IMG/VR virus record: IMGVR_UViG_3300047325_000170
Coordinates: 32,001-96,000 of that record
Source of the DNA: a virus
DNA length: 64,000 bases
Reading direction: 5' to 3' (one strand)
The notes below the pieces were generated by a model. That model saw only the letters and a list, made by a program, of their open reading frames with translations, had not been told where the DNA came from and did no database searches. Every line of letters begins with the position of its first letter. The stretch's first letter is position 1. Shown here in pieces: positions 9,066 to 51,279 of this stretch. Made by a program: the position numbers and the translations under genes.

Positions 9066-9098
9066 GAGACTTCCCCTTCACGGGAAGATCGGGCCTAA

Positions 9099-12000: not shown

Positions 12001-15000
12001 TTGCCGACCAGAGCAGCCGCGATGCCCGCAACCTTGTACGTTTCCGCAAGCTTCGGTTGCCCTGCCGCTCCCGCAACCCCCGCCGCCGTTGTAAGACCAG
12101 CCTCGAGTAAGCCACCCGTAAGAAAGTTGATACCGGCGAGGGAGGCTTGGTACACATAGTCGGTCAGGGTCTTCGAGGGATTGGTGAACGGCGCCACCTT
12201 CCGGTAGGCGCTGATCTGCTGGGGCTGATTGATCACGTGCGTGTCAGGGTCGAGAACGTCGATGCCCTCAGGTCCATTGTCACCAATTGCGTCCCAGAAC
12301 TGGAAGAGGTAGGGGTTGCCGAAGTGGCTGATACCAATGGGGTTCTCGGCCCATGCGCCGCCTTGGCTTGCACTATAGATGTCGTGCTTGATGAGGTTCC
12401 AGAACTTCGTCCCAAGACTGTAGTCGTAGAGCTCTTCGCCGTGGGAGTTGAGCATCTGCCCAATGATTTCACGTGGCTCGTAGGTGAGATCCATCATCTC
12501 ACCGGTCGGCGCCTGACCGTGCACGAGACGGTTCCCATCAGCAAGGAGTCCCGGAAGGAAGCCGCGGTCGGGTCGGTTGATGGAGTTTGTCTCGGATTCG
12601 GCAGAGGGGATCAGCTTCGTGAGCTCGATTCCATCACCAACTGCGATGATCTGCACCCGCTCGCCGAGACCGACCTCCGCAATACGTCCATTGAAGAGGA
12701 CCGGGAATTTGGCGCCGTTTGAACCGTAACCCATGCGGATGTGGACGCGCACGCCTGGCGCAAGCATGACCTGACCTTGCTGCTTCTTGCGCTGTTCAAT
12801 TTGCTGCTGAACGACACTGTCCGTCCCGAGCAGCAGGCGGATCGGGTTGACGAATCCCTCGACCCAGCGATTGATGTTGTTGCGGATGTCGTCGGTGGCC
12901 GCAAAGACCTCGCCCATGTTGAAGCTTACTGCGCCCTTCGCCACGCTGAGTGCGGCAGTCCCGAGATTGCTGAGAACCGGGATCGTATCTCCGTTGTAGT
13001 TGTAGAGCGCTGAGAGCATATTTGCGCTCAGCTGGAACTGCGTGTAAGACGAGAGATTGCCGTAGGTGTTCATGATCTCAATGATGGCGGTATGCATCGG
13101 ATCCCGGCGATCATTGATGATGTCTATGGATTGGATAGCCTGGAGGGCATAGAGATTCGGCATGAGGTTTTGCCAGCCGATCTTCGGGCCTTCGTCCATG
13201 AGCTGAAAGACGTAGGTGGGGTAGGCTTGAACGAGCCGCCCCGTCATGTCGTGTTCCATAAGATCCCGAAGCATGGCGATCATACGCCCATGTTCGTCGA
13301 TCTGCTGTGAACCAACATCGACGGGATGGTGACTCTGAAGCGCCTGATTCAGGTAGGCTCGCGGGTCCTTCCCATCTTTTTTCTGTCCTAGGATCTCTTG
13401 TGCGGAGTCCTGGACCGCCGCCGGAAGTCCGGGGATTTTCAGCCAGGATGCCGTCCCGTAGTTCCCGGCATTGACACCATAGCTATTTTCTCCCGGGTGG
13501 GTAATCTGGACCGACTGCCCGTCGACCTGAAGCGTCGCTTGGTAGTTGCTTTGCTGCGTGACCGTGGGGGTAAACTGATTCGTAGCCGTTTGGGTGCCGT
13601 TGTTAATGGTCGGCATCGTTAGTGAGCCAACGAGATTGGTGTGGCCGCGCTGCGGACCTGATTCCCAGGCAGTCGACGGCCGCCCTTGATTCGTATTGTC
13701 GCTACCGGGTGCTGCCTCGGGAGCCGTTGCGCCCATCGCCTGAGGATCAACCCCGTAGAGACCGCCCGCCGGATGCTCATCAAAGAGAGACTGCCGAACC
13801 GCTTCGCTAACGGAGCCAGTGATGTTGAGAGCGATAGTTCCGTTCTGGTTGAGGGTGGAGATTTGGCTCGCGACCTGAGCAAGGTACGATGAGGTAGCCG
13901 CTCCGAGGGGGTTGATCGGAATGTTCAGCTTTTCGGCGAGGAGCTCGTTTGGGTAATCGATGTAGAAGTCAGGATCGACGAAGCGACCCTGGTCAGTCCA
14001 ATACTCCCAGCGCAGTTGCTGCATGGCGAGCTGCGCCTGTGCCTCACCGAGCTGCGATGGGTCGAAGATCTCTCCGTTCTGAAGAGCTGCCTGGATACGC
14101 TCGAAGGTCGGAAGCTCGAGGTCAGGATAGAGCTCGAGGTAGGCCATCTGTTCTTTTGCTTCCTGAATAGGCGCAGCCGCAAACCACGCATTGACCGGCC
14201 GACCGGTTGTATCGAAGCCATTGTTGCCCTTGTCACCGGTTGGTTGACGGGGGTCCTTGGCAGGGTTGTAGTCGTTGATATAGCGCTGCCAGAAGACATA
14301 GCGCGGATCGGTCCCGGCGCTGATGGGTCCAACTTCGCCCGAGACCCCTGAAGGCAACTGCTCGTTGATGAGCTGGGGCAGGAGCGCTGCGCCCTTCACG
14401 GCTTCAATACGGCGTTGATGACGCTCGAAAGAGATCATCTCAATCGCGACGGTAAAGATGTTGGGATAGCCCTCGACGGGTTCCGACACAATGTTCGTGA
14501 AAACGACATTATGCACGCCCATAAGGGAAGCGATCTCATTCTCAAAGCCAACAAAGCCGGCAACGAGTTCATAGCGTGCCTCGCGGGCATTGGTACGAGC
14601 GTATTCAACCATTGCCCGCACGGAGTCGAGTGCCGCGAGGGTCAGTGCGGTGAAGGTAACGGTGAAGCGAACTTCGCCCCCTCCCATGTGTTGGTAGCCC
14701 GGCGTCTCATTCGCTGGAGAGCGCACCATCACAAATGAGTTGTTGATCTCGGCCGAGATGCCGGTCATGATCAGGTCGGGTGTATCCCATGGACGCATCC
14801 GTGCCTTGGCGTCATCGGTGAAATTGGTGATTTCAGCGAGAAGGTTCTCGAGCGCTTCGTAGATCGAAAGCTTCTCACTCTGTGGCAAGATCTTCACCGC
14901 ATCGCTGAGGGCATAGGTCTGCCAGCGGTTGTACTGATCGTGAAGATCAGAGAGCCCCTTCAGCCATGCGCTGTCGACAACCGTGAATTGAAACTGGGCT

Positions 15001-15794
15001 GACATGGCGTCGAATGGTTCGCGAGTACTGATGAGGTAGGGCTGCGAAGCAGTCAGTCCATTAAAGGTCTGTTGTTCCGAGGTGGTAAGGGGGGCCGAGC
15101 TTGGAAGATCGGGCCATTTCGCACATACGCGCCACTGCCCCGGCAGCCATTCCGCATAGGCTTGCTGCCAGTACCAGCGTTGTAAGGGGTAGATGAAAGC
15201 GGAGTCAAACTGATAGGGCGGGATCGATGAACAGAAGGTGCCGATTTCGAGAGCCTTACACCACAAGACAACAGCAAGCGCGTTCGGGATCTGTTGTCCA
15301 TCCTTGGTACCGGCCCGGAGGAAGAGCCGCTCGAGCGCGAGGACATGAACCCCATTCGAATTGAGGTACGTGTTCGTGACGGGCAAGATGGGCGTGCGCT
15401 TGAATTGAGCAATCAGACTCGCGATACTGCGATTGTCGATAGGTGGCGAGCTTAAGTAGCCCCCGCTGACGCGACGATTATCGGGATTAGGATCAACTTC
15501 TCCGGTCGAGAGTCCGAAGACATCATAGGCACTCGTGACTTCAAACTCGATCTGGACGATCTTCTCCACAAAGCCGGTGGACATGACAATACCGCCCGTT
15601 GTCCGAGGGACCGGTTCGACGTGGTTGTTGGAGACATCCGTGAGAGAGATACGGTACGGCGGGACCGTCGCGGCAAAGTCTCCGATACGAAGGTAGTCTT
15701 CGTTACCGATGAGCTCCCCGTCCAAACTGCGGTCAAAGTTGATCGCGAGGAGCTGGGGGAAGTTCTCATCAGAAGGATAGCGGAGGAGAGGCAA
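9099..15794 (-). CDS. Giant baseplate hub protein with C-terminal M15-like peptidase
   Basis: Hub-like motifs RVHIRMGYG..LFNGRIAEV and GDPTVKPYD..VRKVTHHF. C-terminal YHYKGQAID...HIHI. TTG start. Confidence 0.7.
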   Translation of the reverse strand: MPLLRYPSDENFPQLLAINFDRSLDGELIGNEDYLRIGDFAATVPPYRISLTDVSNNHVEPVPRTTGGIVMSTGFVEKIVQIEFEVTSAYDVFGLSTGEVDPNPDNRRVSGGYLSSPPIDNRSIASLIAQFKRTPILPVTNTYLNSNGVHVLALERLFLRAGTKDGQQIPNALAVVLWCKALEIGTFCSSIPPYQFDSAFIYPLQRWYWQQAYAEWLPGQWRVCAKWPDLPSSAPLTTSEQQTFNGLTASQPYLISTREPFDAMSAQFQFTVVDSAWLKGLSDLHDQYNRWQTYALSDAVKILPQSEKLSIYEALENLLAEITNFTDDAKARMRPWDTPDLIMTGISAEINNSFVMVRSPANETPGYQHMGGGEVRFTVTFTALTLAALDSVRAMVEYARTNAREARYELVAGFVGFENEIASLMGVHNVVFTNIVSEPVEGYPNIFTVAIEMISFERHQRRIEAVKGAALLPQLINEQLPSGVSGEVGPISAGTDPRYVFWQRYINDYNPAKDPRQPTGDKGNNGFDTTGRPVNAWFAAAPIQEAKEQMAYLELYPDLELPTFERIQAALQNGEIFDPSQLGEAQAQLAMQQLRWEYWTDQGRFVDPDFYIDYPNELLAEKLNIPINPLGAATSSYLAQVASQISTLNQNGTIALNITGSVSEAVRQSLFDEHPAGGLYGVDPQAMGATAPEAAPGSDNTNQGRPSTAWESGPQRGHTNLVGSLTMPTINNGTQTATNQFTPTVTQQSNYQATLQVDGQSVQITHPGENSYGVNAGNYGTASWLKIPGLPAAVQDSAQEILGQKKDGKDPRAYLNQALQSHHPVDVGSQQIDEHGRMIAMLRDLMEHDMTGRLVQAYPTYVFQLMDEGPKIGWQNLMPNLYALQAIQSIDIINDRRDPMHTAIIEIMNTYGNLSSYTQFQLSANMLSALYNYNGDTIPVLSNLGTAALSVAKGAVSFNMGEVFAATDDIRNNINRWVEGFVNPIRLLLGTDSVVQQQIEQRKKQQGQVMLAPGVRVHIRMGYGSNGAKFPVLFNGRIAEVGLGERVQIIAVGDGIELTKLIPSAESETNSINRPDRGFLPGLLADGNRLVHGQAPTGEMMDLTYEPREIIGQMLNSHGEELYDYSLGTKFWNLIKHDIYSASQGGAWAENPIGISHFGNPYLFQFWDAIGDNGPEGIDVLDPDTHVINQPQQISAYRKVAPFTNPSKTLTDYVYQASLAGINFLTGGLLEAGLTTAAGVAGAAGQPKLAETYKVAGIAAALVGNTANMLNQGIPSGYGETCENVYSIYTPFSKFFREVGSFSSAVGVNYFAQQAAGVIANPYSVKTAIDNVQAKAAQGGFNPSSGQFDAPPLPDVGQTQLMGPHPPGITFNMYTKNKTCWDVISTMAQYFPPYVAAVVPFEYRSTLFFGAPYYQFRYDYQRVSAYDLGQADPGLDRFYGYPVGYKTKTFCQFHYYGSTSNLLTNTIRASDEETYTDVIAMWYNGQGYQSSRPTPKPVHQTVDRQISSAFRKTAIVNTDVLGLDVAPTKAAIIGSLGLDLVGYWAENIGIPGTDFSIAGGMGHWITEENMRQMARAILRDYQKLMYQGQVLVLGDPTVKPYDIMYLNDTYTDVRGLCGVRKVTHHFGFDVGYVTSIEPDMLCEVKGENYWSSMWAWFGGYLAADVVSLLGAKWALCQGTKQFSQSLFNFGVKVTKQNITQRIFSFLKGGSKPPPTGYELKIGGKAVSTFKPRFLTYQIRNLILDGLNRVLSGSTSVSTSVQSSFGTTASEYQQLAQNISNAVSKTRSIFGKTGVEKVSGETAAQIINEVLAEAIDENGEEILDAAIKDAIAKNFLNFTNGTFDQAVNRTAAEVIAKRGVLNFLTRESTTLTSKTLAGAGADLTEILADAFGQVGEKSIQAVVTEDLAVAGGRLAGLAAELFPILMEARIISCFNPIGLAANVIFQIIFGYAWTAISRYWDDQTSLVMVFLKYRGAELQAGLNGHSESVVLQAALPGDTSLTISDADKEKLRQLGAIQPRGDMVHATLAKGLETASPAQSVIVAPVAGIAVPTESGSVANPVTFLSGGTSYSTSSRMAIISKHQWESSLIMTELLTQQTAPPSQGVSNDIISFLNFLTQNGISVYMTAAAARSHGDLGAGTGSYHYKGQAIDIGLVSENGGPMINVAATPPAGLRLIRLAERYNVAQIGVNSYYDAGQLAELTTPAGTDVGDGTIMFIDRGTGAHIHIATRT

Positions 15795-15818: not shown

Positions 15819-18800
15819 CTACGAGCGGCCTTTCAACTGATCACTCGCGTCCTTGTCACGGTCGCGGGTCGTGCGGCGTGCGTCTTGCATATCGACGTTC
15901 ACCTGGGCCCCAATGGCGTTGCTGATCCCGGCACGGAGCGCTTCGGGGCTTGACATGTCCCCGTTCCGACTTGCACGTACCTGGATGTTGTAGCTCTGGG
16001 CCGAGCCACCGGTGTCGTTACTCATGACGCGGGTGCGGCCGCCCGTTGGGGGCTTGGGCATCTCGGGGGCGTCGCGGATCTCCCCGCTCTGTCCGAAGGT
16101 CACGGCTGCGGTTGCCAGGGCGCCTGCGCCAAGGCCGGCCATGACCCAGGGGTTCCGGAGTTTCTCCATCACCCCGCTCATTGAGAGCTTCTTTGCTATT
16201 TTAGCACCATCTTCGACCATTGAGCTAGCGTTTTGGGTGACCGGGGCCGAGATCATGTTCTCGGTGAGGTCCTTGGTCTCGGGCAGCACGGACTCTGGGA
16301 TGCTTGCCCCGATCTTGGGTTCGGTCAGAGCTTGGCTTGCTGCCTGTGCCTCTTGCATGCGCTCTTCGGTTGTTCCGGCGGCGTCGATAGCCCCACGTCC
16401 AAAGATCCGTGAGAAGATGTCAACCGCGCTCCGGCCGACTTTCTTCCCTGGGTTGGTAATAGTGCGCACCCAGTCCCCGGCATTCGCTAGGTCAAGTGGC
16501 CCGGCGCCGTTCTTCATGGCGGCTTGAGATTTCCAATTGACCGGTTCGGTAAAGGATTCAAACCAGGAGATCTCTTTGCCCCACTTGTCAAATTTCGGTT
16601 CCGCAGCCTGGCCAGTTTTCACCATGTCTGTGAAAGCCTTGAGGGCTTGGTACTTCCAGATATCCTTACCGGCTTCCATGTCCTCCTTGGCGCCCGCAAG
16701 GAAGTACTTGTCCATGTAGCTATCAACGTTCATGGAGCCAGCGCTCGTTTGCAGCAAGCCGCTTTTTTTGTCATAGAGGTCCTGCGTCTTGTCGATCACC
16801 GATGCTCCCGCCACGCCCGGGACACTCACGGGCTTGCCAACCGACTGCTGTTGAAGGAGCGTGGTGAAAGCGTAGGGGTCAAACTGATTGCCGCCCTTCA
16901 CCTTGAGGAACTCTTCACGAATGATGCCCGCGCCGGTATACTGCAGCGCTGCTAGCTCTCGTTCTTCTGGACTTGCTGCGGTGTTCTTGATCGTGTTCAT
17001 GAGCCGGTCTTGGATAGGCGTCGTCACCGCTCCGATGAGACCCTGCGCACTATCAACCTCGTGCTGCTCGAGGATCCTCTCCATCGTGCTCATCTTTAAG
17101 ATTGGGAGATTGGTATGATAGTAGTTCTCAAAGTTGGCGAAGAGCTCTGCTGTTTTGGGCAGGTTCGCTTTGATCTCTTTAAGGGCGGCTTCATGCCCTT
17201 CCCACGCTGCAACCTTGGCCGTCCATGCCGATTCGAATTGCCCGTGCAATTTCTGCATGATCGCCCGATTGATTTTCGTTCCCTCAAGCATGCCGGCAAG
17301 GACAACACGGACCTTGTCACCGTCCGAGTCACCATAGAGTGCCTTACGCAGACTGTCATGAACGTAGAGGCCAAATCCCTTGATGGTATCGTCGACATAG
17401 ACCTTTGCGCCCATACGACCGTAGATCGCATTGGGGTCGCGGTGCACGGTTGCCCAGAAGAACTCTTGTCCCCGCTCGTCTTTCAGCAAGCTTTGGCCCG
17501 GGACAGCGCCGATTTGTTTAGCAAACTCCCGAGAAACCTTGGCGCTGAAGGGTTGGAAGGACGCATCGTCCGCCCAGAGGGACTGCTGAAGGGGTGCCTT
17601 TAAGAAGCCCTTCCCGCTGAAGTCGAGGCTCTTGTAGAGGTTGTTAAGGAGACCCTTCTTGCCCTTGATCTGCGTTGCAAGCGATTGCTGGTAGGACTCA
17701 ATAGATTTATTGAGATCATCCAGGTGGGCAAGATTCTCAGGATCGATCCGAGCGCTGAGCGCAATCACGCGGTCGAGGGCGCGTTGCGATTCGGAGGGAC
17801 GGTAGCCACCGCCCTTTACGTCGGTGAGATCGGGGATCTCATCGGGGGCGTAGAGCCGCCGCCCGTTTCCAATATCGATATACTGTGCGCCACGCCCATA
17901 GCGTGCGAGGTATTCGTCCTTTGAGAGGACGTTCTTCGGTGCTTGTTCGCGTAGGGCGATCTGTTCGGCGGTCATTTCTGTTGCGCCGGTCGCATTCCCG
18001 AATTTCATCGGATTTTGGTTGGCTTCATACGCAGAGAGGTATTGGTGGAGCTTGTAGGCTCTCTTCTGAGTGGTCGGGTTAGCGAGGTAAGAGGTCTTGA
18101 GATTCTCAGCCTGGAGAAGGAGACCCTCAGCCTCGTAGGCCTTAATGTCAAAGGCCTGCATACCGGCTTCGTTCCGCTTGGGATTGAGGCGTTTGTGCTT
18201 TGCGTAGAGCGCTTCTTCCGCTGTCATGTCCGTCGTGGGCGAAGGATCATTGATGACGCGAGTGGCCAGCATCGACTGTTCATACTGCACGCGGTAGCGG
18301 TTCCCGCTCCGTGAGGTGAAGTTGGTTGTTTGGAGTAATTCCATGCCGCCGCTCGGATCGATCTTCTGTCCGAGCTCGTTCATCATGCGCTTCGCTTCAA
18401 GGGCCTTCGCCACGTTGGTCTCATCAAAGCGATGTTTGCCGGAGATCGCTCGGTTGACGACGTAGCCATTCTCGATGCTGAACTTCATACCGAGACCAAG
18501 CTGATCGAAGATCTCCTGCAACCCTTGTTGAAGAGCAAGGGCCTTCTGGGGATCCTTGCCAGCCCGCGCCATCATCATATTCATCTGACCGCGGACGAGC
18601 ATGCCTGCGCCTTCGTGCTTCTGGAGGGTCTTCACGAGTGGGACGCCAGAGAAGATCTTGACGAAGTCATCGTCCCAGGTCGTTTTCCCACCGTTGATGA
18701 CGACGGTGTTCTTCGACATATCGGCCATGATCTTCATGTTGTGAAGATTGGCCCCGGCCCCGAAGGCCTCGTTGATCTCGGGCTTCGCGATGGCCTGTTG

Positions 18801-21557
18801 TTCGTAGGCCCCCATCACCTGCATCATCTCGTCGGTCCCAAGAGTACGGACAACATTCCCCGCCTCGTCGAGCTCCTCGCCGCCAACGATGAAACCCATG
18901 CCGACATTGCGCTGGTAGGTGGGGTCTGCGAACTCCTTCCCGAGGCGGGACTCTACGCGTTGGAACTGCGTCATCGCAATCTCGTCCTCTGAATTGCGCA
19001 GGGGCACGGCATTGAACTCTTGTTGTGGTCGCGCCCAGGGATTACCACCGGGGACCACGTCTTGATAGATCGCCGCTGCGACGGGAGATCCCTGACGGCC
19101 CGCCTTATTACCAATGATCGCGAGACCCTCGACCCCCTGTCCGGGAGCGGAGCCTTGAATCAGCCGCGTGCGAATCCGCTGCAGTTGCCGGTTCTTGACG
19201 GACGTATTTGAGCCGATGGTATTGAAGATGCGATTTGCAAAGCTTCCCTCGAAGCCGCCTCTTTCATCCTCTTTGTTTAAGAACTTCTCTTGAACTGTGT
19301 CTCCGCCGGCGCTTTCATAGAGGGCTTTTGCAACGGCATTACCTTCCTTGGGTTCGATACGTCCGTCCTCTGCATTTTGAAAGAACTGCCTGAAGAACTT
19401 GTCGCGGTTGATGCGACTCTTATCGGTTGTGGCAAAAGCATAGATTGGATTGATTGTCGACTCTGGCAAGAGCAAAGCATTATGAACGAGGAGTTGTTCT
19501 TGTGTCTGAACGGCCGACGCGGAGATAGCAATCCCGGGATCCTCGGCCGTGGCATCAAGGACGCCCTTCCCGAGCTCAGACGTTGCTTGGTCAAAGAGTC
19601 CCATGTCGAGTTTGCGGACTGCGCGCTGCATGCGGCGGCCGACCGATGCGAACATGACTTCGGTGGCTGAGAAAACATGGAGTCCGCCTTGGATGCGGTT
19701 CTGCGCCGCAATCTTTCGTGCCTCGGAGTAGTTATTAAATGTCTCCGGTCTGACATGAACTGTCTGATATTTCAGTCCTTGGTTGATGAGCTCGTTATCG
19801 TCGAGGAACTCGCTTCCCCGGCCCGATTGCCGTAGGACGAGGTCACTGACGCCAAGGTACTGGCCGATATATTTGCTCCCGCCGGCCGTTTGGAAGACAC
19901 CGTTGACGTCTTCAACGGGAAGGAAGAACTGAGCGGCCCCGCCGGTTCCTTTTGAGATGGCAGCGTTCTCGTGGGGAGCAATGTGAACCCAGACACCGAA
20001 TCCTTGGCCACCGCCCTTGAGAGGGTTCGACTCTTGGAAGGAATAGGAGACCTTCCACTTCGCTGCACGCGGGACCGATTTTCCGTCCTTCTGCTCAAAG
20101 CTTTGAAAGAACTTGATACGTTCCTGAAGATAGTCGAAGGCGGCTTCACGGTTTCCGCCGATGTTGCCGTTCCCGAAGGCGACGATGCCTGTTTTCTTCT
20201 CAAAGGTATCAAGGGCCCGAAGCCGCGCGCGTACATGGGCGGCTTCATCGAACTCATTGACCTTGCCGGTCCACACTTTCTTGCTACCTTCTTGCTTCAT
20301 CTCGAAGACTTCGCGTGAGGTAAGCTGCGCGATGTGGGACTCAAGACCACCGGGGATCTCTTCCGTACCCATCTTGAGGCCCATATGCTGGCCTTGTTGT
20401 TCAAGGTTTTCAAAGTGCCGGCGGAAGAAGCCAAAGGCTCCCTCTCCGGTGAAGGCTTCGCGCCGTAAGACATCCGCCCCGTGGGGCATGCCAAGGCCAT
20501 TCACTGAGGTTTGCATCGCCTCGAGAACAGGGTTCATAAAGCGCTGCCACATCTTCTTGCGCAGAGCAGCGCGCATCGCTGGATGCTGGGCCGGATCTCC
20601 CTTGATCCGGCCATTCTTTACCAGTCGTTGCCATTGGTTCTCAAAGGCGGTCTCGAAGGTGTTGTAGATTGCCCGGCTCATCGCTACATTCTGGGGAGCG
20701 ACGAAGCCCTGCATCACCCGGTTATAGAGGCCCTGTGCATCCTTCGTGTAGACGCCGCCGATCCCGCGACTGCGGATCTTCGGGACGATCCCGCCATCGT
20801 CGGTTGTGACCGATCCGCGCTCGAGCAGTGCCTTGAAGCCGTCGGGATTGAGGAATTCGTGGGGCGACTTCTCATCATTCGTCACGCCACTGAGGGCCAT
20901 CATCGTGCGCTGATGAGTCATGATGAGATCCTGGAAGCGGATCTGGCGCGCGGTCGCCTTGGTCTGTGCCATGTTAAACATGAGCTGACCGACATCTTCG
21001 GGGTTCATGGTTGCAGAGAAGCTCTTGCCAAGCTTTCCTATGGCGCCCTGGGGGACGATGTTCATCGCCACCTGTCCGCTCTCGGTGAGCGAGGAGCTAA
21101 CCTTATAGACTCCAAACTGCTTGGTCAACTCGGGGTCCATGAAGCCAGCAGCACGTAGAGAATCCGTCATGACGTAATAGCCAGAAGGAAGCTCACCTTG
21201 CGCGATCTTGGCAGCGGTCTGAGCGCCGGCTGTTTTCATCTCCTCAAGGCGTCCCGCAGCATTGGCGGCCCTCTCCGCCTTCGTCTCGGGAGTGAAACGG
21301 AAGTCACGTAAGGCAACTCCCATGTCCATGTCGCGGATCTTCCGCCGCGCCGAGGTGAACTCAGGGAGATCCTTGGTGGAGGGAACCTTTGTGATCATGG
21401 CTTGCCAGACATTTGTGCCGCCCTCTTTAACAAACTTCCAGAGGTTTGCCGTCGCCAGATAGCCGCTGCCCCGCATCTTCATATAGACCCCACTCTTGGT
21501 GGTGTCTGCGCCTTGGGCTGGAGCGTAATTCTTAACTACCTTGTCGTAGAGAGACAT
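15819..21557 (-). CDS. Single-chain two-barrel (beta/beta'-like) RNA polymerase, probably virion-packaged
   Basis: beta'-like SLATQIKGKKG...K.LDFSG, VHRDP and LYGDSDGDKV (DxDGD at 17316-17330). Weaker beta-like QQEFNAVPL, YEQQAI and MKIMADMSKNTV upstream. No cysteine found in 1912 aa. Confidence 0.82.
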   Translation of the reverse strand: MSLYDKVVKNYAPAQGADTTKSGVYMKMRGSGYLATANLWKFVKEGGTNVWQAMITKVPSTKDLPEFTSARRKIRDMDMGVALRDFRFTPETKAERAANAAGRLEEMKTAGAQTAAKIAQGELPSGYYVMTDSLRAAGFMDPELTKQFGVYKVSSSLTESGQVAMNIVPQGAIGKLGKSFSATMNPEDVGQLMFNMAQTKATARQIRFQDLIMTHQRTMMALSGVTNDEKSPHEFLNPDGFKALLERGSVTTDDGGIVPKIRSRGIGGVYTKDAQGLYNRVMQGFVAPQNVAMSRAIYNTFETAFENQWQRLVKNGRIKGDPAQHPAMRAALRKKMWQRFMNPVLEAMQTSVNGLGMPHGADVLRREAFTGEGAFGFFRRHFENLEQQGQHMGLKMGTEEIPGGLESHIAQLTSREVFEMKQEGSKKVWTGKVNEFDEAAHVRARLRALDTFEKKTGIVAFGNGNIGGNREAAFDYLQERIKFFQSFEQKDGKSVPRAAKWKVSYSFQESNPLKGGGQGFGVWVHIAPHENAAISKGTGGAAQFFLPVEDVNGVFQTAGGSKYIGQYLGVSDLVLRQSGRGSEFLDDNELINQGLKYQTVHVRPETFNNYSEARKIAAQNRIQGGLHVFSATEVMFASVGRRMQRAVRKLDMGLFDQATSELGKGVLDATAEDPGIAISASAVQTQEQLLVHNALLLPESTINPIYAFATTDKSRINRDKFFRQFFQNAEDGRIEPKEGNAVAKALYESAGGDTVQEKFLNKEDERGGFEGSFANRIFNTIGSNTSVKNRQLQRIRTRLIQGSAPGQGVEGLAIIGNKAGRQGSPVAAAIYQDVVPGGNPWARPQQEFNAVPLRNSEDEIAMTQFQRVESRLGKEFADPTYQRNVGMGFIVGGEELDEAGNVVRTLGTDEMMQVMGAYEQQAIAKPEINEAFGAGANLHNMKIMADMSKNTVVINGGKTTWDDDFVKIFSGVPLVKTLQKHEGAGMLVRGQMNMMMARAGKDPQKALALQQGLQEIFDQLGLGMKFSIENGYVVNRAISGKHRFDETNVAKALEAKRMMNELGQKIDPSGGMELLQTTNFTSRSGNRYRVQYEQSMLATRVINDPSPTTDMTAEEALYAKHKRLNPKRNEAGMQAFDIKAYEAEGLLLQAENLKTSYLANPTTQKRAYKLHQYLSAYEANQNPMKFGNATGATEMTAEQIALREQAPKNVLSKDEYLARYGRGAQYIDIGNGRRLYAPDEIPDLTDVKGGGYRPSESQRALDRVIALSARIDPENLAHLDDLNKSIESYQQSLATQIKGKKGLLNNLYKSLDFSGKGFLKAPLQQSLWADDASFQPFSAKVSREFAKQIGAVPGQSLLKDERGQEFFWATVHRDPNAIYGRMGAKVYVDDTIKGFGLYVHDSLRKALYGDSDGDKVRVVLAGMLEGTKINRAIMQKLHGQFESAWTAKVAAWEGHEAALKEIKANLPKTAELFANFENYYHTNLPILKMSTMERILEQHEVDSAQGLIGAVTTPIQDRLMNTIKNTAASPEERELAALQYTGAGIIREEFLKVKGGNQFDPYAFTTLLQQQSVGKPVSVPGVAGASVIDKTQDLYDKKSGLLQTSAGSMNVDSYMDKYFLAGAKEDMEAGKDIWKYQALKAFTDMVKTGQAAEPKFDKWGKEISWFESFTEPVNWKSQAAMKNGAGPLDLANAGDWVRTITNPGKKVGRSAVDIFSRIFGRGAIDAAGTTEERMQEAQAASQALTEPKIGASIPESVLPETKDLTENMISAPVTQNASSMVEDGAKIAKKLSMSGVMEKLRNPWVMAGLGAGALATAAVTFGQSGEIRDAPEMPKPPTGGRTRVMSNDTGGSAQSYNIQVRASRNGDMSSPEALRAGISNAIGAQVNVDMQDARRTTRDRDKDASDQLKGRS

Positions 21558-24500
21558 TAGGCCGCCTGCTGAATCTGCATGTTCACTTGATGTTGCTGAG
21601 CATTATTGGGATAGAGCTGGATATCGATATCGCGAAGCCCCATACCATCGAGGACGCGATGGAGGTTCGCTTTGATGTTGCCGGGGGTCTCGCGGAAGGG
21701 ACGGATGTCTTTGATCCCAAGCTCACTGACTCGCTCTTCATCCTGCGGCCAGAAGCCTTGGGAGGTCATATCGAGACCCTCTTGCTTCGTGACAACCAGA
21801 CGGTAGTCGTCAAGTGAGTTCTCAGCCTGCCAACCATTCCAGTCCGCGGGCGGCAGGTAATGGTGCTTGAAGTACTCGATGAGTTCTGGCTTCTCATCGA
21901 CCTTTAGGCCATAGGCGGCTTGCAAGAAACGGCGCTCGTTCTTGGGCACCATCTTGAGGATCTCTTTCCGCTCAGGCCCCGGGGCCTTGAGGAACGCCTG
22001 GAAGAACTCACGCTCCTTGGGGTCAAGTGAGAGCAAGACCTTTTGGAGATCGCTACCTGGCTTCGCACCATAGAGTGTCGTCTGCGCGACCTGACGATAC
22101 TGGATCGCAAGGATATCATCACGGGTGAGCTTCAGCTCCTTGCGATAGGACTGCAGCTCGGAGATCTCTTGGTTGATCTCGTGCAAGCGCTTCGCTTGCT
22201 TCTTCTTGTCGCCCTTAATGATGATGCGCCGCTTCTCTTGCCGTAGTTGGGAGATGCGGTGCTTGCGATCATCGCCTTCGCGTTCGTAGCGGTCGATGAT
22301 CGCGCCGATGTCTTTGTGCTCATGTTTGAGAACGTAGGCGCGCGTCTTCTCGTAGAGCCCCTCGTACTTCATGTACTTAAGAATGTCGAAGTACTCTTTG
22401 GTCTCGCGCTCTTTCTTACGATACTCCGGTATGGGATCTTGTGACACCTTATGGCTGAAGGCAAGCGCGCCGGCAATCGCCATCGAAGCACCCATCAAGA
22501 TGGCGCGCGACTTCAACTGGATCTTCCCAAGCTTGAAGCCAAATTTGGTGTTGGGGAGACGCTCAATGAGCTTCCCGCCGTAGAGGGGGCCAACCCCGAG
22601 GAAGTACCCGATAGCACCGGCAACCGCCATACCGGCGATGCCTTGTGCGGCAGCTGATTCAAACGAGGGGAAGATGTAATCCCGGAAAGGGTGCTTCCAG
22701 TCTTGCCAATCCTTACCGTAGACTTGCGTACGCTTATAGAGTTCGATAGGTGAGTCAAGGGCCATGTACTTATTGTGAAGCAGGGTGATCGGCAGGTGCC
22801 CAATGCGCTCAAGGGCTCCGGCCCAGGCGATCTCGTTGCTCGTGTACTGTGCATGCATACCAGCGGGCGAACTATCTTGGGTCTCTGAGCCGTAGTCCTG
22901 ATCGATAGCTTCGCGGTTGAGCATCCGCCCATGGCTAAAGACGACAGCGTGGATGGTGTTGAGGGTATCCTTCGAGACACGCTGCGCTTGATCGTGAGCA
23001 TAGCCGATCTTCACCGTACGCCCCGGCCCGAGATTCTGGCTGAGCCAGGTGGTCGCATCGGCATCGCTGCGGACGTGAACACCCGCAAGGCGGATCGGAT
23101 TGTCGGGGTGCTCGAGCGTCGTGAAGGTATTATTGTCGATCATCTTATCGATATGGACGGTCTCATAGTCGAGCTGTGCATACCGGAGATGATAGGGTGC
23201 CATCGTTACGCGGTGCTTGCGCTGCGTAACCTGTTCCTTGACGGTCTTGATGCGTGCTCGATCTTCGTCGGAGAGGACGCCTTCGGGGAGATGCACGAGA
23301 TAGTCGCGGTAGCGCCGGTACTGTGAGGACCAGGGCGCCACATCACCGAGGATCTCGAGCTTCGTGACATCATCGTAGAACTGGCCTTGGCTCCAAAGGC
23401 CTTCTTTCGTCTCCTTGGCGATCTGCTTGCGGACATCGTCGACCTTTGCAATCGTCTTATCGTAGAGATCCTGATCGAAGGTCAGCTGCGCGGAACGCTG
23501 CTCATTTGGATTGTCGCGGTTGACGTAGACGATGCCGCCCTGCTTTGCGCCAAGCTCGGCCATGTCCAGGTTGAGTTGTTCGCGATGGCGTGCATCAATC
23601 GTGTCATGCAGTTCGCGATAACGCTTCTGCGAGAGGGTGTGGATCTCAATTGGGTTGCCGTCCTTGGTGACAAAGTCGACGGTTCCGGAGATCCCAAGCT
23701 TCTTGTCATCGTAACTGACGTCACGCTTGCCACCCGGCGACTCGCCGAGAAGCTCATGCTTGATCTTCTCATGCAGCTCTCCACCGCGTTCAGCGATTTC
23801 CTGTGAGTAGGCATAGAAGGGCTCGTGGTCTCCCGTTAAGAGTCCATAGAGTCCGTCGCGAGAGTAGCCGATCTGCGTGCTGCGTAGCTTGAGGTCCATG
23901 GCTGGTATTCCATGGAGTTTCTCGTAGGCCGCACCTGGCAGGCGCGCTTCACCGTTCGGGATCGTGACATAGGGGTCGCCGTGGAGGAAGTCGAGGAAGT
24001 AGGCGGGGTCTTCACCGCCCTGCCCCGGCAACCAGGTGGGCATTGTATTCCGGATCGGATTGTATTCGGTGTTGGAGTGATAGCGGTGGGGCAGGAAACG
24101 ACGGAAGGCTTCTGAGAGCCCCGGTGTCGGCAGCATGCCGCCGGTGTTCCAGTTATCCCAGTACTGCCGCTCGAACGAGGTCATCCGTCCTGCTGATTGC
24201 AGGGTCGGCAAGTTGGAGTAGGGATAGTCCACGGTGCTCGCCGCGGCGAAGCCGTAGATACCGCCGATTTCCGTTAAGGAGTAGTAGCCAAGACCGGCCT
24301 GATAGCGTGGATCGTTGGGATTGATGAGTCGCTTGAGGGAGCGGGGATCATTCGGATCCTGCGACTTGAAGAGCCCCGGCGCTTGCGTGCCTTCGAGCAT
24401 ACGCCCCGGCGTGAAGCGCTGCGCTGCCTTGAGCTTCTCGTTGGACTCACGGATCTTTTGGCGTGTCTTCGCCTTGGCCGAACCGTAGGGCGCAATCGCC

Positions 24501-26743
24501 CGCGCACCCTTCCCGTAGCTGCCGCGCTGGACGCCTTCGTCATAGCCCGCATCGCTGTCGTCAGCGTCGTCTTGGGTATCGTCATTGATCGCAGCAATCG
24601 CCCGATCAGAACCGGGCAGGCCCACCGCGCCCATCGGCAGGATCTGGCCCGAGGCGGTGACAAAGCCGGTGAGTTCTTGGTTAGCAGCCTTTTCTTTGAT
24701 TTGCTCGTTGAGGGTGCGAAGATCTCCGCGGTACTTGGGATTGCGTTCGCCCTGGTGGGGGCCAGAGATCAAATACGGAAGATCCTCCGCATGCATGTAT
24801 TTCGTCGGCTTGAGGATCGGGCCGAGAATTGGGTTGAGGAGGGCGCCCCAGGGTGAAGTGGGCTCAAAGAGCGGGGCGGAGATCGGATAGGGGCGGTCCT
24901 TGTAGTGCTTCTTCTCGTAGTGATAGCGATCAAAGAGGAAGTGCTGCGCCCAACTGAAGGGATGCGTCGGTGTGGGGAGGGCGGCATTAGCGTAGTATTC
25001 ATCAACTGAACCGAAAAGGGTGTCGGTCTTGGTGATGTCGCCAGCTAAGGCTTGACGATGAGCATTGGGAGCAAAGTACTGGATGCGCTCGCCGCGGAAC
25101 GGCGTGCTCGATCCGAAGCTCCACCAGCGGCCCTTGCGGACCGGGACATAGCCACTGTCCTGTTGCTCCTTGAGTTCCTCTTGGCTGAGGCCAACCTTCG
25201 CATCGACGAAGGGGTGGGCGATGTGAGAGAGGACACCGCCGGAGAGCTCATCGACATGCTTGAGCCACGGACTGATCCCAAGCTTGTCCTTAAGTCCCGC
25301 CCACCAGAGCTCACCCTTATCCTTGGCGAGCTGTGCTTGATCGGTCGGGCGGCGCCCCATGAGCTTGCCGAGTTCATCGTTGAGATAGCCTGCGTAGAAG
25401 ATCCCCGCCGCGATAGGCAAGGCCCGCTTGAGCATGACATTCGCAAAGTAGGCGGTCGGACCCTTAAAGGCTAGCTTCCCGAGCTTGAACTCGGTGGATG
25501 ATCCCGACATCGCAAGCCATGGGAAGAGGCCATTGTAGGCCATGCCCGTGTTGATACGCTCGAGGAGATGATAGGCGGCAAAGGTGCCGGTGTTGATCTC
25601 GGTTCCGCGGGTTGCCCCGAAGAACATGTTCTTGAGACCAGTGGGCGTGAACTCCATGGCCCGTGCCACCCCGAAGGGCAGCTGATCAGCAAGGCGTCGT
25701 GCCTCGGGAAGATCCTCGACTGCAATGTTTCCGAAGCGGGACTGCCAGAACTTCTCGCGGCCCTCTTTGCTCCAGATTGCCGCGCCGCGCTCATTGAGGC
25801 CAACGTCGAAGAAGCGTTGCGCACGAGCTCGTAAGCTGGTGTTTCCGGGATCGCGAATCGCAGCGATCTTCTCGAGCTTCTCATTGAGCGTCTCAAGGTT
25901 GAAAAGCCGCACCCCTTCTTCCTGAGAGATTCCCCGCTCTTCGCGGATAACATCTCCCCGGATCCTTGAGATGAGTTTTTGATTGCGACTAATGCGAGCA
26001 TGGATATTGCCGACATCATAGCTCTCGCCGAGGAGATCGCCACGCATGCGCTCGATGGCGTTCTTCTTCTCGCCAATCCCCGCCTTACCATAGAGCCAGT
26101 ACTTGCCTTCAATGGTATGGATCTTGCTCCACAGTAGCTGTGGAGGCGCCCCTTCGCCCGGGCTATCAAGAAGGGCTTGAACGACGTGAACCTTACCACC
26201 GACGAAGTAGGCACGGGCGTGCTCTGAGATCCCGCGCTTCTGGAGTTCTTCAGGGGTGAGGAGGCCGAGCTTGCCGATTCTCCCGAGGGCTTGGAACTGA
26301 GAGGTCGACTTGCCGGCCGTCCCATACATCTCACGGAGTTCAGGACCGAAGGCGAGCTTATCGGCGATCTGGAGCGGCAGGAAGGTCTGAGACGCTTTCT
26401 GCCACGCGGTCATCAGCGGCGAGCGGCTAATGAACATCCCCAGGGCATGGATGCTATTGGCTTCAGGGGCCTTGCCCTGCAGGTGGTTGTAAAGGAGATT
26501 GGTTTCGATGGTCCGCCGCTGCATGGCACGCAGGGCAGTCGTTTGCTTCATCCAGCCAGGTGGCGTGAAGGCGAGGCCGCCCTGTTGGAAGGCGACCTGC
26601 ATCTCCGCAGCAAGGGTCTTATCAGCCCACGGCTTGAGGCCCTTGCCCAACGCAAAAAGACCGCCGACAGTAGCTGCTCCGGTGAGGAGCGAACGGCGGC
26701 GGTCGTCTTCGCTGTTGGGGGGGTTGTAGCCGTACTCAGCCAC
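21557..26743 (-). CDS. Large Cys-free virion protein in the tape-measure position with PD-(D/E)XK-like and SNase-like domains
   Basis: G.ELHE...ISGTVD...IEIHT...QLNLDM...GGIVYVNRD, and IDNNT...IRLAGV...LNREAI. Several Gly/Ala hydrophobic segments. Follows the tail chaperones. Confidence 0.65.
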   Translation of the reverse strand: MAEYGYNPPNSEDDRRRSLLTGAATVGGLFALGKGLKPWADKTLAAEMQVAFQQGGLAFTPPGWMKQTTALRAMQRRTIETNLLYNHLQGKAPEANSIHALGMFISRSPLMTAWQKASQTFLPLQIADKLAFGPELREMYGTAGKSTSQFQALGRIGKLGLLTPEELQKRGISEHARAYFVGGKVHVVQALLDSPGEGAPPQLLWSKIHTIEGKYWLYGKAGIGEKKNAIERMRGDLLGESYDVGNIHARISRNQKLISRIRGDVIREERGISQEEGVRLFNLETLNEKLEKIAAIRDPGNTSLRARAQRFFDVGLNERGAAIWSKEGREKFWQSRFGNIAVEDLPEARRLADQLPFGVARAMEFTPTGLKNMFFGATRGTEINTGTFAAYHLLERINTGMAYNGLFPWLAMSGSSTEFKLGKLAFKGPTAYFANVMLKRALPIAAGIFYAGYLNDELGKLMGRRPTDQAQLAKDKGELWWAGLKDKLGISPWLKHVDELSGGVLSHIAHPFVDAKVGLSQEELKEQQDSGYVPVRKGRWWSFGSSTPFRGERIQYFAPNAHRQALAGDITKTDTLFGSVDEYYANAALPTPTHPFSWAQHFLFDRYHYEKKHYKDRPYPISAPLFEPTSPWGALLNPILGPILKPTKYMHAEDLPYLISGPHQGERNPKYRGDLRTLNEQIKEKAANQELTGFVTASGQILPMGAVGLPGSDRAIAAINDDTQDDADDSDAGYDEGVQRGSYGKGARAIAPYGSAKAKTRQKIRESNEKLKAAQRFTPGRMLEGTQAPGLFKSQDPNDPRSLKRLINPNDPRYQAGLGYYSLTEIGGIYGFAAASTVDYPYSNLPTLQSAGRMTSFERQYWDNWNTGGMLPTPGLSEAFRRFLPHRYHSNTEYNPIRNTMPTWLPGQGGEDPAYFLDFLHGDPYVTIPNGEARLPGAAYEKLHGIPAMDLKLRSTQIGYSRDGLYGLLTGDHEPFYAYSQEIAERGGELHEKIKHELLGESPGGKRDVSYDDKKLGISGTVDFVTKDGNPIEIHTLSQKRYRELHDTIDARHREQLNLDMAELGAKQGGIVYVNRDNPNEQRSAQLTFDQDLYDKTIAKVDDVRKQIAKETKEGLWSQGQFYDDVTKLEILGDVAPWSSQYRRYRDYLVHLPEGVLSDEDRARIKTVKEQVTQRKHRVTMAPYHLRYAQLDYETVHIDKMIDNNTFTTLEHPDNPIRLAGVHVRSDADATTWLSQNLGPGRTVKIGYAHDQAQRVSKDTLNTIHAVVFSHGRMLNREAIDQDYGSETQDSSPAGMHAQYTSNEIAWAGALERIGHLPITLLHNKYMALDSPIELYKRTQVYGKDWQDWKHPFRDYIFPSFESAAAQGIAGMAVAGAIGYFLGVGPLYGGKLIERLPNTKFGFKLGKIQLKSRAILMGASMAIAGALAFSHKVSQDPIPEYRKKERETKEYFDILKYMKYEGLYEKTRAYVLKHEHKDIGAIIDRYEREGDDRKHRISQLRQEKRRIIIKGDKKKQAKRLHEINQEISELQSYRKELKLTRDDILAIQYRQVAQTTLYGAKPGSDLQKVLLSLDPKEREFFQAFLKAPGPERKEILKMVPKNERRFLQAAYGLKVDEKPELIEYFKHHYLPPADWNGWQAENSLDDYRLVVTKQEGLDMTSQGFWPQDEERVSELGIKDIRPFRETPGNIKANLHRVLDGMGLRDIDIQLYPNNAQQHQVNMQIQQAA

Positions 26744-26755
26744 GTAGGAAGTCCT

Positions 26756-27502
26756 TTACGATCTGTTCTGTTTGAGACTTGCCATCAGTTGCTGACGACG
26801 TTGTGCTTTCTCGAACTTTGGTAGGACTTCACTGAGCGGCTTGAGGGCTGCTCGATCTGCGCCGTCGATGACCCCGAGGGTTGATCCACTCTCGTCGGCG
26901 ACCTGTTGATTCTTGTTGAGGCGCTCTTGAAGTTCGGCCATGCGTTCTTTGTTATTGAGGCCACGCGGTGGCTTGATTGGTTTCTCTTCTTCTTTCTTAC
27001 TCTGCTGGATCTTCAGCCCCGGCGTCGTCGCTTCAAGGATCCAACAAGCCCGTGCATAGGCATCGAAGAGTTGATCGTGACTCCAATCACTGTAGCGGGC
27101 GAAAAGCCCCCCGCCATCAAAGGCATAGTCGATCATCGTCTCCATCTGAGCTTCAAAGTCTTCAACGATACGCCCCTGGTAGAAGCCGAGGCGTCCTTCC
27201 ATATCGATGATGCCGGAAGAATTGAGGACCTGAGCGCAGATAGCATCCGGTACACCGGCCGGTCCATCTTGGACTGCGGGGGCATCTGCCTTCCATCCCT
27301 CGGGCCAGAGGAGCGTTGTCTCGCAGACTTCTTCGGCGCGTTCGAGCTCGTCTTCGATATGAATAATAGCTCGGTACTCACGCCGCGAGAGTCGCCGGTA
27401 GATGTAGATCTGCTCGACGTGCTGGAATAAGAAAATAGCCCCGTAGTCAGCAATCCAACTACGGAAGCGTTCCTCCGGCGGCGCTTGCGGCGCTGCCTCC
27501 AC
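26756..27502 (-). CDS. Tail assembly chaperone-like protein 2
   Basis: YIYRRLSRREY...LLWP...PAGVP..I...SG, paralogous to the upstream gene. Confidence 0.6.
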   Translation of the reverse strand: MEAAPQAPPEERFRSWIADYGAIFLFQHVEQIYIYRRLSRREYRAIIHIEDELERAEEVCETTLLWPEGWKADAPAVQDGPAGVPDAICAQVLNSSGIIDMEGRLGFYQGRIVEDFEAQMETMIDYAFDGGGLFARYSDWSHDQLFDAYARACWILEATTPGLKIQQSKKEEEKPIKPPRGLNNKERMAELQERLNKNQQVADESGSTLGVIDGADRAALKPLSEVLPKFEKAQRRQQLMASLKQNRS

Positions 27503-31969: not shown

Positions 31970-32081
31970 GTCACTCTCTCCTTGAGAGGAGATCAACAAA
32001 CTCTAACTTACCCTGCATCTAGCGAACAGGCTCTTCAGCCCTAGCGCTCAGGTAATCTTGCGTGTACCTCTGGAGAGAGGC

Positions 32082-51183: not shown

Positions 51184-51279
51184 TCTAGTATGTTCCTCCA
51201 CTTGGGAGTGTATTTGTCTTACTTTAGTGGCTGTCAGTCCCTCGGTTGGCGCCGAAGTCCCGAGCCGTCTAGCTTGGGC

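Follow-up and report, generated by a model that had tools for sequence, protein, structure and literature searches.

Does the protein encoded in the tape-measure slot of an uncultured, large phage with a contractile tail contain an RNA polymerase (RNAP)? This question is raised by a 64,000-nucleotide (nt) stretch of viral DNA, hereafter called the window, which comprises bases 32001-96000 of the 111,160-bp IMG/VR virus record IMGVR_UViG_3300047325_000170 (estimated completeness, approximately 70%). A gene on the minus strand of the window encodes a 1912-amino acid (aa) protein, P0001, in which a preliminary description of the sequence had recognized motifs resembling those of the beta and beta' subunits of bacterial RNAP. 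Our analysis suggests that the catalytic core of cellular RNAPs is very probably present in P0001 in single-chain form, as judged from predicted structures, and that the phage is likely to deliver its own transcription enzyme through the tail. On the whole, we consider it probable that P0001 is a virion protein of the tape-measure slot with an embedded, active, minimal two-barrel RNAP, which is expelled by way of the contracted tail and then transcribes early genes. P0001 would then be catalytically active on a DNA template, packaged in the virion, ejected from it, and directed specifically to early genes.

The predicted polymerase core of P0001

All of the motif strings quoted in the preliminary description are present in P0001 in the order claimed, namely RPQQEFNAVPL (aa 843), RNVGMGFI (aa 883), GAYEQQAI (aa 916), MKIMADMSKNTV (aa 941), SLATQIKGKKGLLNNLYKSLDFSG (aa 1292-1315), VHRDP (aa 1371), and LYGDSDGDKVRV (aa 1407). 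The regions that contain these motifs were modelled with AlphaFold without templates. Model 1 covers aa 780-1720 (6 sequences; mean predicted local distance difference test score (pLDDT), 47.6), and model 2 covers aa 1160-1570 (mean pLDDT, 60.1). Model 1 is confident only at approximately aa 880-1100 and 1160-1300, and its catalytic barrel is below a pLDDT of 50.

In a Foldseek search of the PDB, the best 50 matches of model 1 were all chains of multisubunit RNAPs, mostly beta/Rpb2 with a few beta' chains (E-values, 0.01-0.17). VIA-align, which is independent of Foldseek and was run against 48,161 chains, placed second-largest RNAP subunits in nine of the ten best positions. The alignments of these nine chains comprise 159-185 residues and involve residues 96-328 of the model, corresponding to aa 875-1107 (Z, 7.6-9.6). 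The matched chains are RPB2 of African swine fever virus (Z, 9.6), vaccinia Rpo132 (9.4), chain A of the plastid RNAP (9.3), Pol IV (8.8), Pol I (8.8), chain C of the phiKZ non-virion RNAP (nvRNAP; 8.6), chain C of the AR9 nvRNAP (8.5), Xanthomonas beta (7.7), and Pol III (7.6).

The best 50 PDB matches of model 2 in Foldseek were all of the beta'/Rpb1 type (E-values, 1.2e-3 to 5e-3; probability, 0.97-1.0 for most), and VIA-align aligned aa 1181-1451 with residues ~20-525 of Rpb1, A190, C160, and archaeal Rpo1 (215-238 residues; Z, 8.1-8.5). Within this region, aa 1316-1449 were aligned by VIA-align with designed double-psi beta-barrel (DPBB) proteins and the N domains of p97/CDC48 (Z, ~8; 81-85 residues; 2.4-2.6 Å). 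When model 2 was compared with the predicted viral structures of the BFVD, the best match was a 428-residue protein (E-value, 5.4e-5), followed by an uncharacterized protein of Acinetobacter phage vB_AbaM_ME3 (6.4e-5, 456 columns). Further matches were a 'minor tail protein' of an uncultured siphovirus and then giant-virus Rpb1 homologues and baculovirus/nudivirus LEF-9. The two separate models thus point to two different catalytic subunits, in the N-to-C order beta then beta', and both barrel regions within approximately aa 830-1570, the segment that the preliminary description had singled out for AlphaFold and Foldseek analysis, were matched to RNAP catalytic subunits with low-to-moderate model confidence. 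No chain of P23-45 gp96, phi14:2 gp66, QDE-1, or PolD is among the 50 matches listed in the PDB fold searches, which is not evidence of their absence.

The features of the gene that would make up the core are as follows (window coordinates).

15819..21557, minus strand: whole gene, with an ATG start, for the Cys-free 1912-aa protein P0001 in the tape-measure slot; defined by its open reading frame (ORF) and by synteny
19020..19031, minus strand: RPQQ (aa 843-846), with R843, P844, and Q846 invariant
18237..18935, minus strand: beta/Rpb2-like region with the putative second barrel (DPBB-B), aa 875-1107, from VIA-align and Foldseek
18711..18734, minus strand: KIMADMSK (aa 942-949), with K942 and K949 invariant, candidates for the two basic residues of DPBB-B
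17613..18017, minus strand: region like the N-terminal clamp core of beta'/Rpb1, aa 1181-1315, from hhalign and VIA-align; pLDDT 60-90 in model 2
17211..17612, minus strand: putative catalytic double-psi beta-barrel (DPBB-A), aa 1316-1449, from VIA-align and Foldseek
17433..17444, minus strand: HRDP (aa 1372-1375), with R1373 and P1375 invariant, counterpart of beta' NRAP
17316..17330, minus strand: DSDGD (aa 1410-1414), putative Mg-binding aspartate triad
16893..17267, minus strand: three long predicted helices, aa 1431-1555, with conserved AQGxIGxxxxPxQ and IREExLKVK; low pLDDT

A profile comparison by hhalign also aligned the family with beta': aa 1236-1318 correspond to beta' 244-354 of Escherichia coli RpoC (E-value, 0.0012; probability, 20%). 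This alignment pairs PDEIPDL..GGGYRPSESQRALDRVI with the PPDLRP..RRVI-type stretch of beta', and SLATQIKGKKGLL..YKSLDFSGKGF (KGKKGLL..YKSLDFSGKGF) with its KGKxG stretch. The clamp-core-like region includes the former segment, which begins at aa 1238, as well as SLATQIKGKKGLLNNLYKSLDFSG. HRDP and YGDSDGD are further counterparts, of beta' NRAP and NADFDGD, respectively, and the four beta' motifs are collinear in P0001 with comparable spacing. In addition, the DSDGD loop is in register with DFDGD of P23-45 gp96 and with ADTDGDKV of gp99 of Bacillus jumbo myophage 0305phi8-36. None of the beta' and loop alignments is significant alone. When sub-alignments of the family were compared by hhalign with the single sequences of RpoB, gp64, gp66, gp99, and ME3 gp036, the results were not separated from those of the 0305phi8-36 control proteins gp145 and gp146.

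An exhaustive phmmer search of 1.84 billion cluster representatives with aa 560-1750 detected just five relatives of P0001: P0002 (1854 aa), P0003 (1944 aa, on a 211,787-bp contig), P0005 (2208 aa), and the fragments P0004 and P0006. Conservation was counted in the family alignment, in which five sequences cover each region, with identities of 23-37%. The invariant residues include R843, P844, Q846, K942, K949, K976, K980, and H981 on the beta side and R1373, P1375, G1380, R1381, D1410, D1412, G1413, and D1414 on the beta' side. The last four residues belong to the DxDGD signature, whose conservation among homologues was required by the preliminary proposal; they are unchanged in all five family members that cover the site. 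When only the four full-length members are considered, the density of invariant columns is highest at aa 851-1000 and 1301-1450, which correspond to the two proposed barrels. A D.DGD pattern is calculated to occur by chance in approximately 2% of proteins with the size and composition of P0001, and that of P0001 is the sole one in any ORF of at least 150 aa across the 111-kb record.

On the beta side, only part of the reported motif similarity was retained: R843-P844-x-Q846 is conserved in the family, whereas the adjoining AVPL is particular to P0001 alone. Family conservation on this side is limited to R-P-x-Q, G-x-x-E/D-Q, and K-x6-K-G/N-T. At the KIMADMSK site, the relative P0004 reads GQKVSYHGTKGTVV, which is near GDKMAGRHGNKG of beta. 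K942 and K949 fall inside the matched beta-like barrel and may be equivalent to K1065 and K1073 of beta. If G916-Q921 and K942 also have the equivalents proposed, approximately 20 residues separate them where beta has a flap (sandwich-barrel hybrid motif, SBHM) insertion of >200 aa, and the beta-like region has ~233 aa compared with 290-590 (about 600) in the matched subunits. Both values are consistent with the flap-less architecture envisaged in the preliminary description. The single-chain, beta-then-beta' two-barrel core proposed there likewise agrees with the fold matches of both halves, the invariance of the catalytic residues, and the collinear profile alignment to beta' 244-354. The helices at aa 1431-1555 are candidates for the bridge-helix and trigger region in the models; they have a pLDDT of <50, and their fold matches are generic helical hairpins.

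Conventional sequence searches were mostly negative. P0001 matched no Pfam family at E <= 0.1 and no PHROGs entry, phmmer and family hidden Markov model (HMM) searches of PDB sequences gave chance matches only, and tblastn against 50,697 GenBank phages yielded nothing. PF00623 and PF00562 matched nothing in the whole record, although they matched in all 14 control genomes, and PF05183 gave no match in the record at E <= 10, whereas 0305phi8-36 gp99 scored 1.1e-20 in the same search. Word-based homologue searches returned P0002 and P0001 itself only, and scans of IMG/VR, GTDB genomes, and metagenomes confirmed no relative. The family HMM detected nothing in the genomes of 0305phi8-36, P23-45, and phi14:2. 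By language-model features, the nearest Pfam-bearing cluster is a viral PF05183 RNA-dependent RNA polymerase (RdRP) cluster (score, 0.84), which is a lead only. P0001 appears to represent an enzyme family without sequence similarity to any described RNAP. The validated phage two-barrel RNAPs gp66, gp96, and gp64 likewise have no Pfam match, and therefore the silence of Pfam is weak evidence against P0001 as an RNAP.

Several other points weigh against the proposed polymerase. No sequence method reaches significance, the best hhalign probability being 20%. The models, for which only 6 sequences were aligned, have low-to-moderate confidence (pLDDT of the catalytic barrel, 46-76); the PDB matches in Foldseek have weak E-values (1e-3 to 1e-1); and the VIA-align Z values of 8-9.6 are slightly above the background of 7-8 stated for the tool. 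Short motifs may also pull AlphaFold toward the abundant RNAP fold. In the triad loop, the middle residue of P0001 is Ser, a position occupied by Thr in 0305phi8-36 gp99. Furthermore, because the record is approximately 70% complete, a second RNAP or a sigma factor is possible. In the extreme case, there would be no polymerase at all, and the motifs would be due to chance and the fold matches would be artefacts of low-confidence models (mean pLDDT, 48 and 60), as the weak E-values and the lack of a significant sequence-level match might suggest. However, each of the two separate models matches a different RNAP subunit, the N-to-C order of these subunits is correct, the match lists are homogeneous (the best 50 of each model in Foldseek and 9 of the 10 best chains in VIA-align), four beta' motifs are collinear, and the exact catalytic residues are invariant. 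Moreover, a syntenic protein of Bacillus phage vB_BauM_KLEB27-3, gp034, has NRYP...ADYDGD with a sub-threshold PF00623 match there (E-value, 0.015). We therefore regard an artefact as very improbable.

The tape-measure slot and its neighbourhood

The large genes of the window, all encoded on the minus strand, constitute a head-tail module. In addition to the portal, capsid, and sheath genes listed below, this module includes a pair of tube paralogues, the two chaperone genes, three giant ORFs (1728, 1912, and 2231 aa), and genes for the baseplate. The order in the window is tube, tube paralogue, chaperones, the 1728-aa gene (g1728), the P0001 gene, and the hub gene. The landmarks of the module and the parts of P0001 outside the proposed core are as follows.

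55098-57593, minus strand: portal
50080-51303, minus strand: major capsid protein
30290-31999, minus strand: sheath
26756-27502 and 27506-27982, minus strand: two tail-chaperone genes, homologues of 0305phi8-36 gp143/gp144 (blastp E-values, 2e-11, 7e-10, and 2e-8)
21557..26743, minus strand: g1728, upstream neighbour, homologue of the 0305phi8-36 virion protein gp145 (blastp E-value, 0; 30% identity over 1473 columns)
19068..21557, minus strand: N-terminal region of P0001, aa 1-830, conserved in the family at lower density and without an assignable fold or family
16092..16148, minus strand: hydrophobic Gly/Ala-rich segment of P0001, aa 1804-1822, present in all full-length relatives
15825..16061, minus strand: conserved C-terminal domain of P0001, aa 1833-1911, ending in ..QLKGR, weakly similar to the extreme C-termini of 0305phi8-36 gp146 and KLEB27-3 gp034
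9099..15794, minus strand: g2231, downstream neighbour, baseplate hub with cell-wall hydrolase domains, homologue of 0305phi8-36 gp147 (phrog_20474 E-value, 1.2e-142; tblastn and blastp)

The preliminary description had placed the gene between the tail chaperones and the baseplate hub. The assignment to the tail module stands, but the chaperones are not adjacent, because g1728 separates them from the P0001 gene. The P0001 gene overlaps the stop codon of g1728 by one base, and the hub gene lies 24 nt downstream on the same strand. A language-model search with aa 1-830 of P0001 gave no usable match. The hydrophobic segment reported near the C-terminus was located at aa 1804-1822 (WVMAGLGAGALATAAVTFG).

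A blastp comparison revealed a gene order shared with gp140-gp151 of 0305phi8-36, comprising gp140 (E-value, 1e-46), gp141, gp142, gp143/gp144, gp145, the gp146 slot, gp147, gp150, and gp151. The hub g2231 matches the hubs of 0305phi8-36 and its kin, and P0001 occupies the gp146 slot between the gp145 homologue and the hub. The likeness between P0001 and gp146 is confined to the last ~70-110 residues (blastp E-value, 0.05; hhalign E-value, 0.031), and the extreme C-termini of P0001 and KLEB27-3 gp034 also align (hhalign E-value, 0.025). According to the 0305phi8-36 record, both gp145 and gp146 are virion proteins by mass spectrometry, and gp146 is labelled 'hypothetical tape measure'. From the tail length, Hardies et al. 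(2007, PMC2147016) assigned the orf146 product as the tape measure, and they noted that the alignments with its homologues are restricted to the last 60 residues; the C-terminus-only likeness of P0001 to gp146 follows the same pattern. Among the features used to recognize tape-measure proteins, the slot position and a hydrophobic segment are present in P0001, and g1728 intervenes as its counterpart does in 0305phi8-36. The proposed core would be part of the protein encoded at the locus of the presumed tape measure of the lineage.

The phage 0305phi8-36 also provides an argument for a purely structural role. Neither gp145 nor gp146 contains a DxDxD motif, and the absence of this motif from gp146 itself, a further point against the polymerase, means that occupancy of the slot does not imply one. 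P0001 might thus be a structural tape-measure or tail-lumen protein, with its polymerase-like core being an inactive relic, a spacer, or part of an ejected channel former; its position and C-terminal domain are those of the presumed tape measure of the lineage, gp146 fills the equivalent slot without any DxDxD, and the classic beta' arginines are not kept in the P0001 family. Nevertheless, the aspartate triad, R-x-P, and both lysines have remained invariant at 23-37% identity, and conservation is strongest in the two barrels, with divergence elsewhere in the protein, which is the pattern of an enzyme under selection rather than that of a spacer. A relic is therefore rather unlikely. The putative polymerase core would be lineage-variable content of the slot protein.

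The absence of Cys reported for P0001 was borne out by counting (0 in 1912 aa, with ~7 expected at the 0.2-0.5% Cys of most other large phage ORFs). The two giant proteins upstream of the hub contain 0 Cys in the P0001 phage, 0305phi8-36 (gp145 and gp146), ME3, KLEB27-3, and Moorella phage MTATph1; by contrast, 8-10 Cys are present in the hubs that were counted. A lack of Cys as a trait specific to polymerases was rejected, because it is also found in the non-polymerase tail-lumen proteins gp145 and gp146. As far as these sequences indicate, it marks the tail-lumen proteins of the 0305phi8-36-like lineage and not polymerases, and it may more generally characterize proteins travelling through the tail.

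The proposed virion delivery of P0001 is strengthened by its synteny with gp146, a virion protein identified by mass spectrometry, and by the Cys-free giants in five phages of the lineage. A genuine two-barrel polymerase might still be left unpackaged, as a late or non-virion enzyme, or be stored in the head instead of the tail. In phi14:2, the virion RNAP is encoded amid genes for giant virion proteins but is not a tape measure, and gp99, the RNAP of 0305phi8-36, lies outside the tail module. Such an arrangement is unlikely for P0001 given the one-base overlap with the g1728 stop codon, the 24 nt to the hub gene on the same strand, and a combination of C-terminal domain, hydrophobic segment, and zero Cys like that of the mass-spectrometry-verified gp145/gp146.

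The slot was also inspected in cultured phages. In KLEB27-3, gp034 (7454-14758, plus strand) is a 2434-aa 'structural protein' with 0 Cys, encoded immediately ahead of the hub. NRYP...(41 aa)...ADYDGD occurs in this protein at aa 1933, and the sub-threshold PF00623 match (E-value, 0.015) lies exactly there. Judging from its sequence, gp034 is likely to be another unannotated RNAP in the tape-measure slot. In ME3, the equivalent slot holds gp036 (9456-14267, plus strand), a 1603-aa hypothetical protein with 0 Cys and SREP...GGDHDQDQ, in which DxDxD is at aa 1217; its profile comparison with the P0001 family is not significant. The ME3 entry of the BFVD that matched model 2 is most probably the second half of gp036, as judged from a length that implies a split into two halves. 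Sequence homology between P0001 and gp036 is not claimed, because hhalign performed no better than with the negative controls gp145 and gp146. In MTATph1, the slot (7721-15077) contains a 1309-aa ORF followed by a transposase and small ORFs and then by a 313-aa ORF whose C-terminus resembles the conserved C-terminal domain of the slot proteins; the slot gene looks as if it has been split by a mobile element. In the literature searched, the slot proteins of KLEB27-3, ME3, and MTATph1 are not described as polymerases.

The upstream neighbour g1728 has a Cas4/PD-(D/E)XK-like nuclease match at aa 976-1111 (phrog_1706; E-value, 1.7e-10). It is Cys-free and has hydrophobic segments at aa 1364-1387 and 1415-1433, and its clear homology to the virion protein gp145 makes it a candidate for a co-ejected nuclease. 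Two other observations concern further ORFs of the window. The ORFs at 28714-29364 and 29466-30236 (minus strand) match phrog_9206 'major head protein', yet they are homologous to 0305phi8-36 gp140/gp141; this label is misleading, as the record notes of gp140/gp141 give tail tube and tube paralogue. A 3306-aa ORF at 38251-48171 (minus strand), located between the head and tail modules, has 11 Cys.

Proposed delivery and candidate early elements

How would a polymerase in the tail be used? In the mechanism that we propose, the middle of P0001 (~aa 840-1560) would form a single-chain, zinc-free, flap-less two-barrel RNAP core, in which a beta-like barrel with K942 and K949 would be followed by a beta'-like clamp core and then by a catalytic barrel with R-x-P and the DSDGD triad. 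P0001 would be built into the tail along with the Cys-free giant encoded upstream, and the conserved C-terminal domain and hydrophobic segment of P0001 would act at the hub and membrane end. Upon contraction of the sheath, P0001 would be expelled through the tube into the cell, where it would fold and transcribe the first-entering phage genes independently of the host RNAP.

A candidate target for such an enzyme was found beyond the window. The motif YCACG-N5-6-AGDGG has 18 matches on the plus strand, 17 of which, of the form CCACG-N5-6-AG(T/A/G)GG, are clustered at genome positions 100,216-110,270, compared with ~4 expected on both strands in the shuffled genome. This ~10-kb stretch lies about 4-14 kb past the right end of the window, in the adjacent block of plus-strand genes. 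The consensus is CCACGCTnnnAGTGG, with complementary ends (CCAC and GTGG); the element is frequently preceded by a terminator-like hairpin and is located 8-12 nt ahead of GGAGG and a start codon. The element is thus a candidate for a phage-specific promoter or for a 5' RNA element or hairpin.

Two-barrel enzymes do not all serve DNA-dependent transcription, and the main activity of P0001 might be RNA-dependent RNA synthesis, the priming of DNA replication, or that of a membrane-anchored transcription motor that pulls in the long genome, gene expression being a secondary function. The PF05183 RdRP cluster is nearest by language-model features (0.84, a lead only), QDE-1-type enzymes use templates of two kinds (PMC9508822), the C-terminal hydrophobic segment would hold the enzyme at the membrane, and transcription concomitant with DNA translocation has been proposed for gp96 (PMC10770324). 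However, the best fold matches listed are DNA-dependent multisubunit RNAPs, with PolD and QDE-1 absent among the 50 listed, and polymerase-driven entry alone has been argued to be too slow for a genome of such size (Hardies et al. 2007, PMC2147016). We consider these other activities quite unlikely.

Starting from the proposed ejected RNAP, a broader scenario can be drawn, which we regard as possible though doubtful. Tail-lumen RNAPs may be widespread and unannotated in the ancient 0305phi8-36-like lineage, with KLEB27-3 gp034 and ME3 gp036 possibly carrying one, and the enzyme may be shot through the contracted tail, be anchored to the membrane by its C-terminal hydrophobic segment, and start at the CCACG-N5-6-(A)GTGG elements of the early block, thereby helping to draw in a genome of ~160 kb (estimated from the ~70% completeness).

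If P0001 is indeed such an enzyme, the strategy of tail-fused RNAPs would extend to large phages with contractile tails that belong to a very old lineage. The enzyme would be unusually small, without zinc sites and apparently flap-less, and its passage through the tail tube of a myovirus raises a mechanical question. These results suggest that many genes annotated as 'hypothetical' or 'tape measure' hide host-independent transcription machinery. Similar proteins are present in the cultured phages KLEB27-3 (Bacillus) and ME3 (Acinetobacter), and the idea is therefore open to bench testing. Minimal RNAP cores of this kind would also be of use in studies of polymerase evolution.

Comparison with known polymerases

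To our knowledge, a tail-fused virion RNAP has been demonstrated experimentally only in the Thermus siphovirus P23-45 (in 2024). The enzyme, gp96, is a two-barrel virion RNAP fused to the tape measure, which is also present in P74-26, G20c, and TSP4, and transcription concomitant with DNA translocation has been proposed for it (Chaban et al. 2024, PMC10770324). This precedent, which was absent from the interpretation in the preliminary description, lowers the novelty of P0001. Similar to P0001, gp96 has a single-chain two-barrel core with DxDGD inside a giant tail-lumen (tape-measure) protein, is Cys-free (0 in 5002 aa), has no Pfam match, contains a hydrophobic segment elsewhere in the protein, and is proposed to transcribe the first-entering genes. 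In contrast, there is no detectable homology between the two proteins beyond the catalytic loop (the HMM search was empty, and hhalign aligned only the loop; E-value, 0.02; probability, 2%). The P0001 phage is a contractile-tailed member of the 0305phi8-36-like lineage, whereas P23-45 is a siphovirus; the core is located in the middle of P0001 (~aa 840-1560 of 1912) but at the N-terminus of the 5002-aa ruler of gp96; and a clamp-core segment of the beta' type (PPDLRP..RRVI-like) is kept in P0001, in contrast to gp96, which has been described as lacking a clamp. The best fold matches listed for P0001 are multisubunit RNAPs and not gp96, QDE-1, or gp66. The tail-fused polymerase is thus already known from gp96, and what appears to be new, from the sequences compared, is the lineage, the morphotype, the placement of the core, and a family without homology to gp96. 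In the broader scenario drawn above, possible though doubtful, the clamp-core motifs of the beta' type would imply an origin of the P0001 family from a multisubunit-type RNAP that is separate from the origin of gp96.

Single-chain two-barrel phage RNAPs comparable to the P0001 core are represented by the YonO/0305phi8-36 gp99/QDE-1 family (PF05183) and by phi14:2 gp66. The gp99 protein shares with P0001 a small residue in the loop (ADTDGDKV versus GDSDGDKV), but it has a PF05183 match (E-values, 1e-18 to 1e-20), is encoded outside the tail module, and contains 10 Cys. phi14:2 gp66 is found in virions, and its gene neighbours those of other giant virion proteins; phi14:2 is a podovirus-like crAss phage without a tape measure, and gp66 has no profile match to P0001. 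In the P0001 lineage itself, 0305phi8-36 gp146 shares with P0001 the slot between the gp145 homologue and the hub, the absence of Cys, and a weakly similar extreme C-terminus, but it lacks DxDxD, its other ~1800 aa show no detectable similarity to P0001, and 0305phi8-36 carries its RNAP as a separate gene, the PF05183-type gp99.

The closest structural counterparts of both halves of P0001 are the beta and beta' subunits of multisubunit RNAPs (E. coli RpoB/RpoC and the AR9 and phiKZ nvRNAPs). Unlike these enzymes, P0001 is one chain, has no Cys and hence no zinc-binding elements, leaves no room for the flap (SBHM), falls below the Pfam thresholds of PF00562/PF00623, and has no alpha, omega, or sigma partners seen in the record. 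It shares with them the order of beta then beta', the collinear beta' motifs, and, putatively, the two-lysine hairpin motif.

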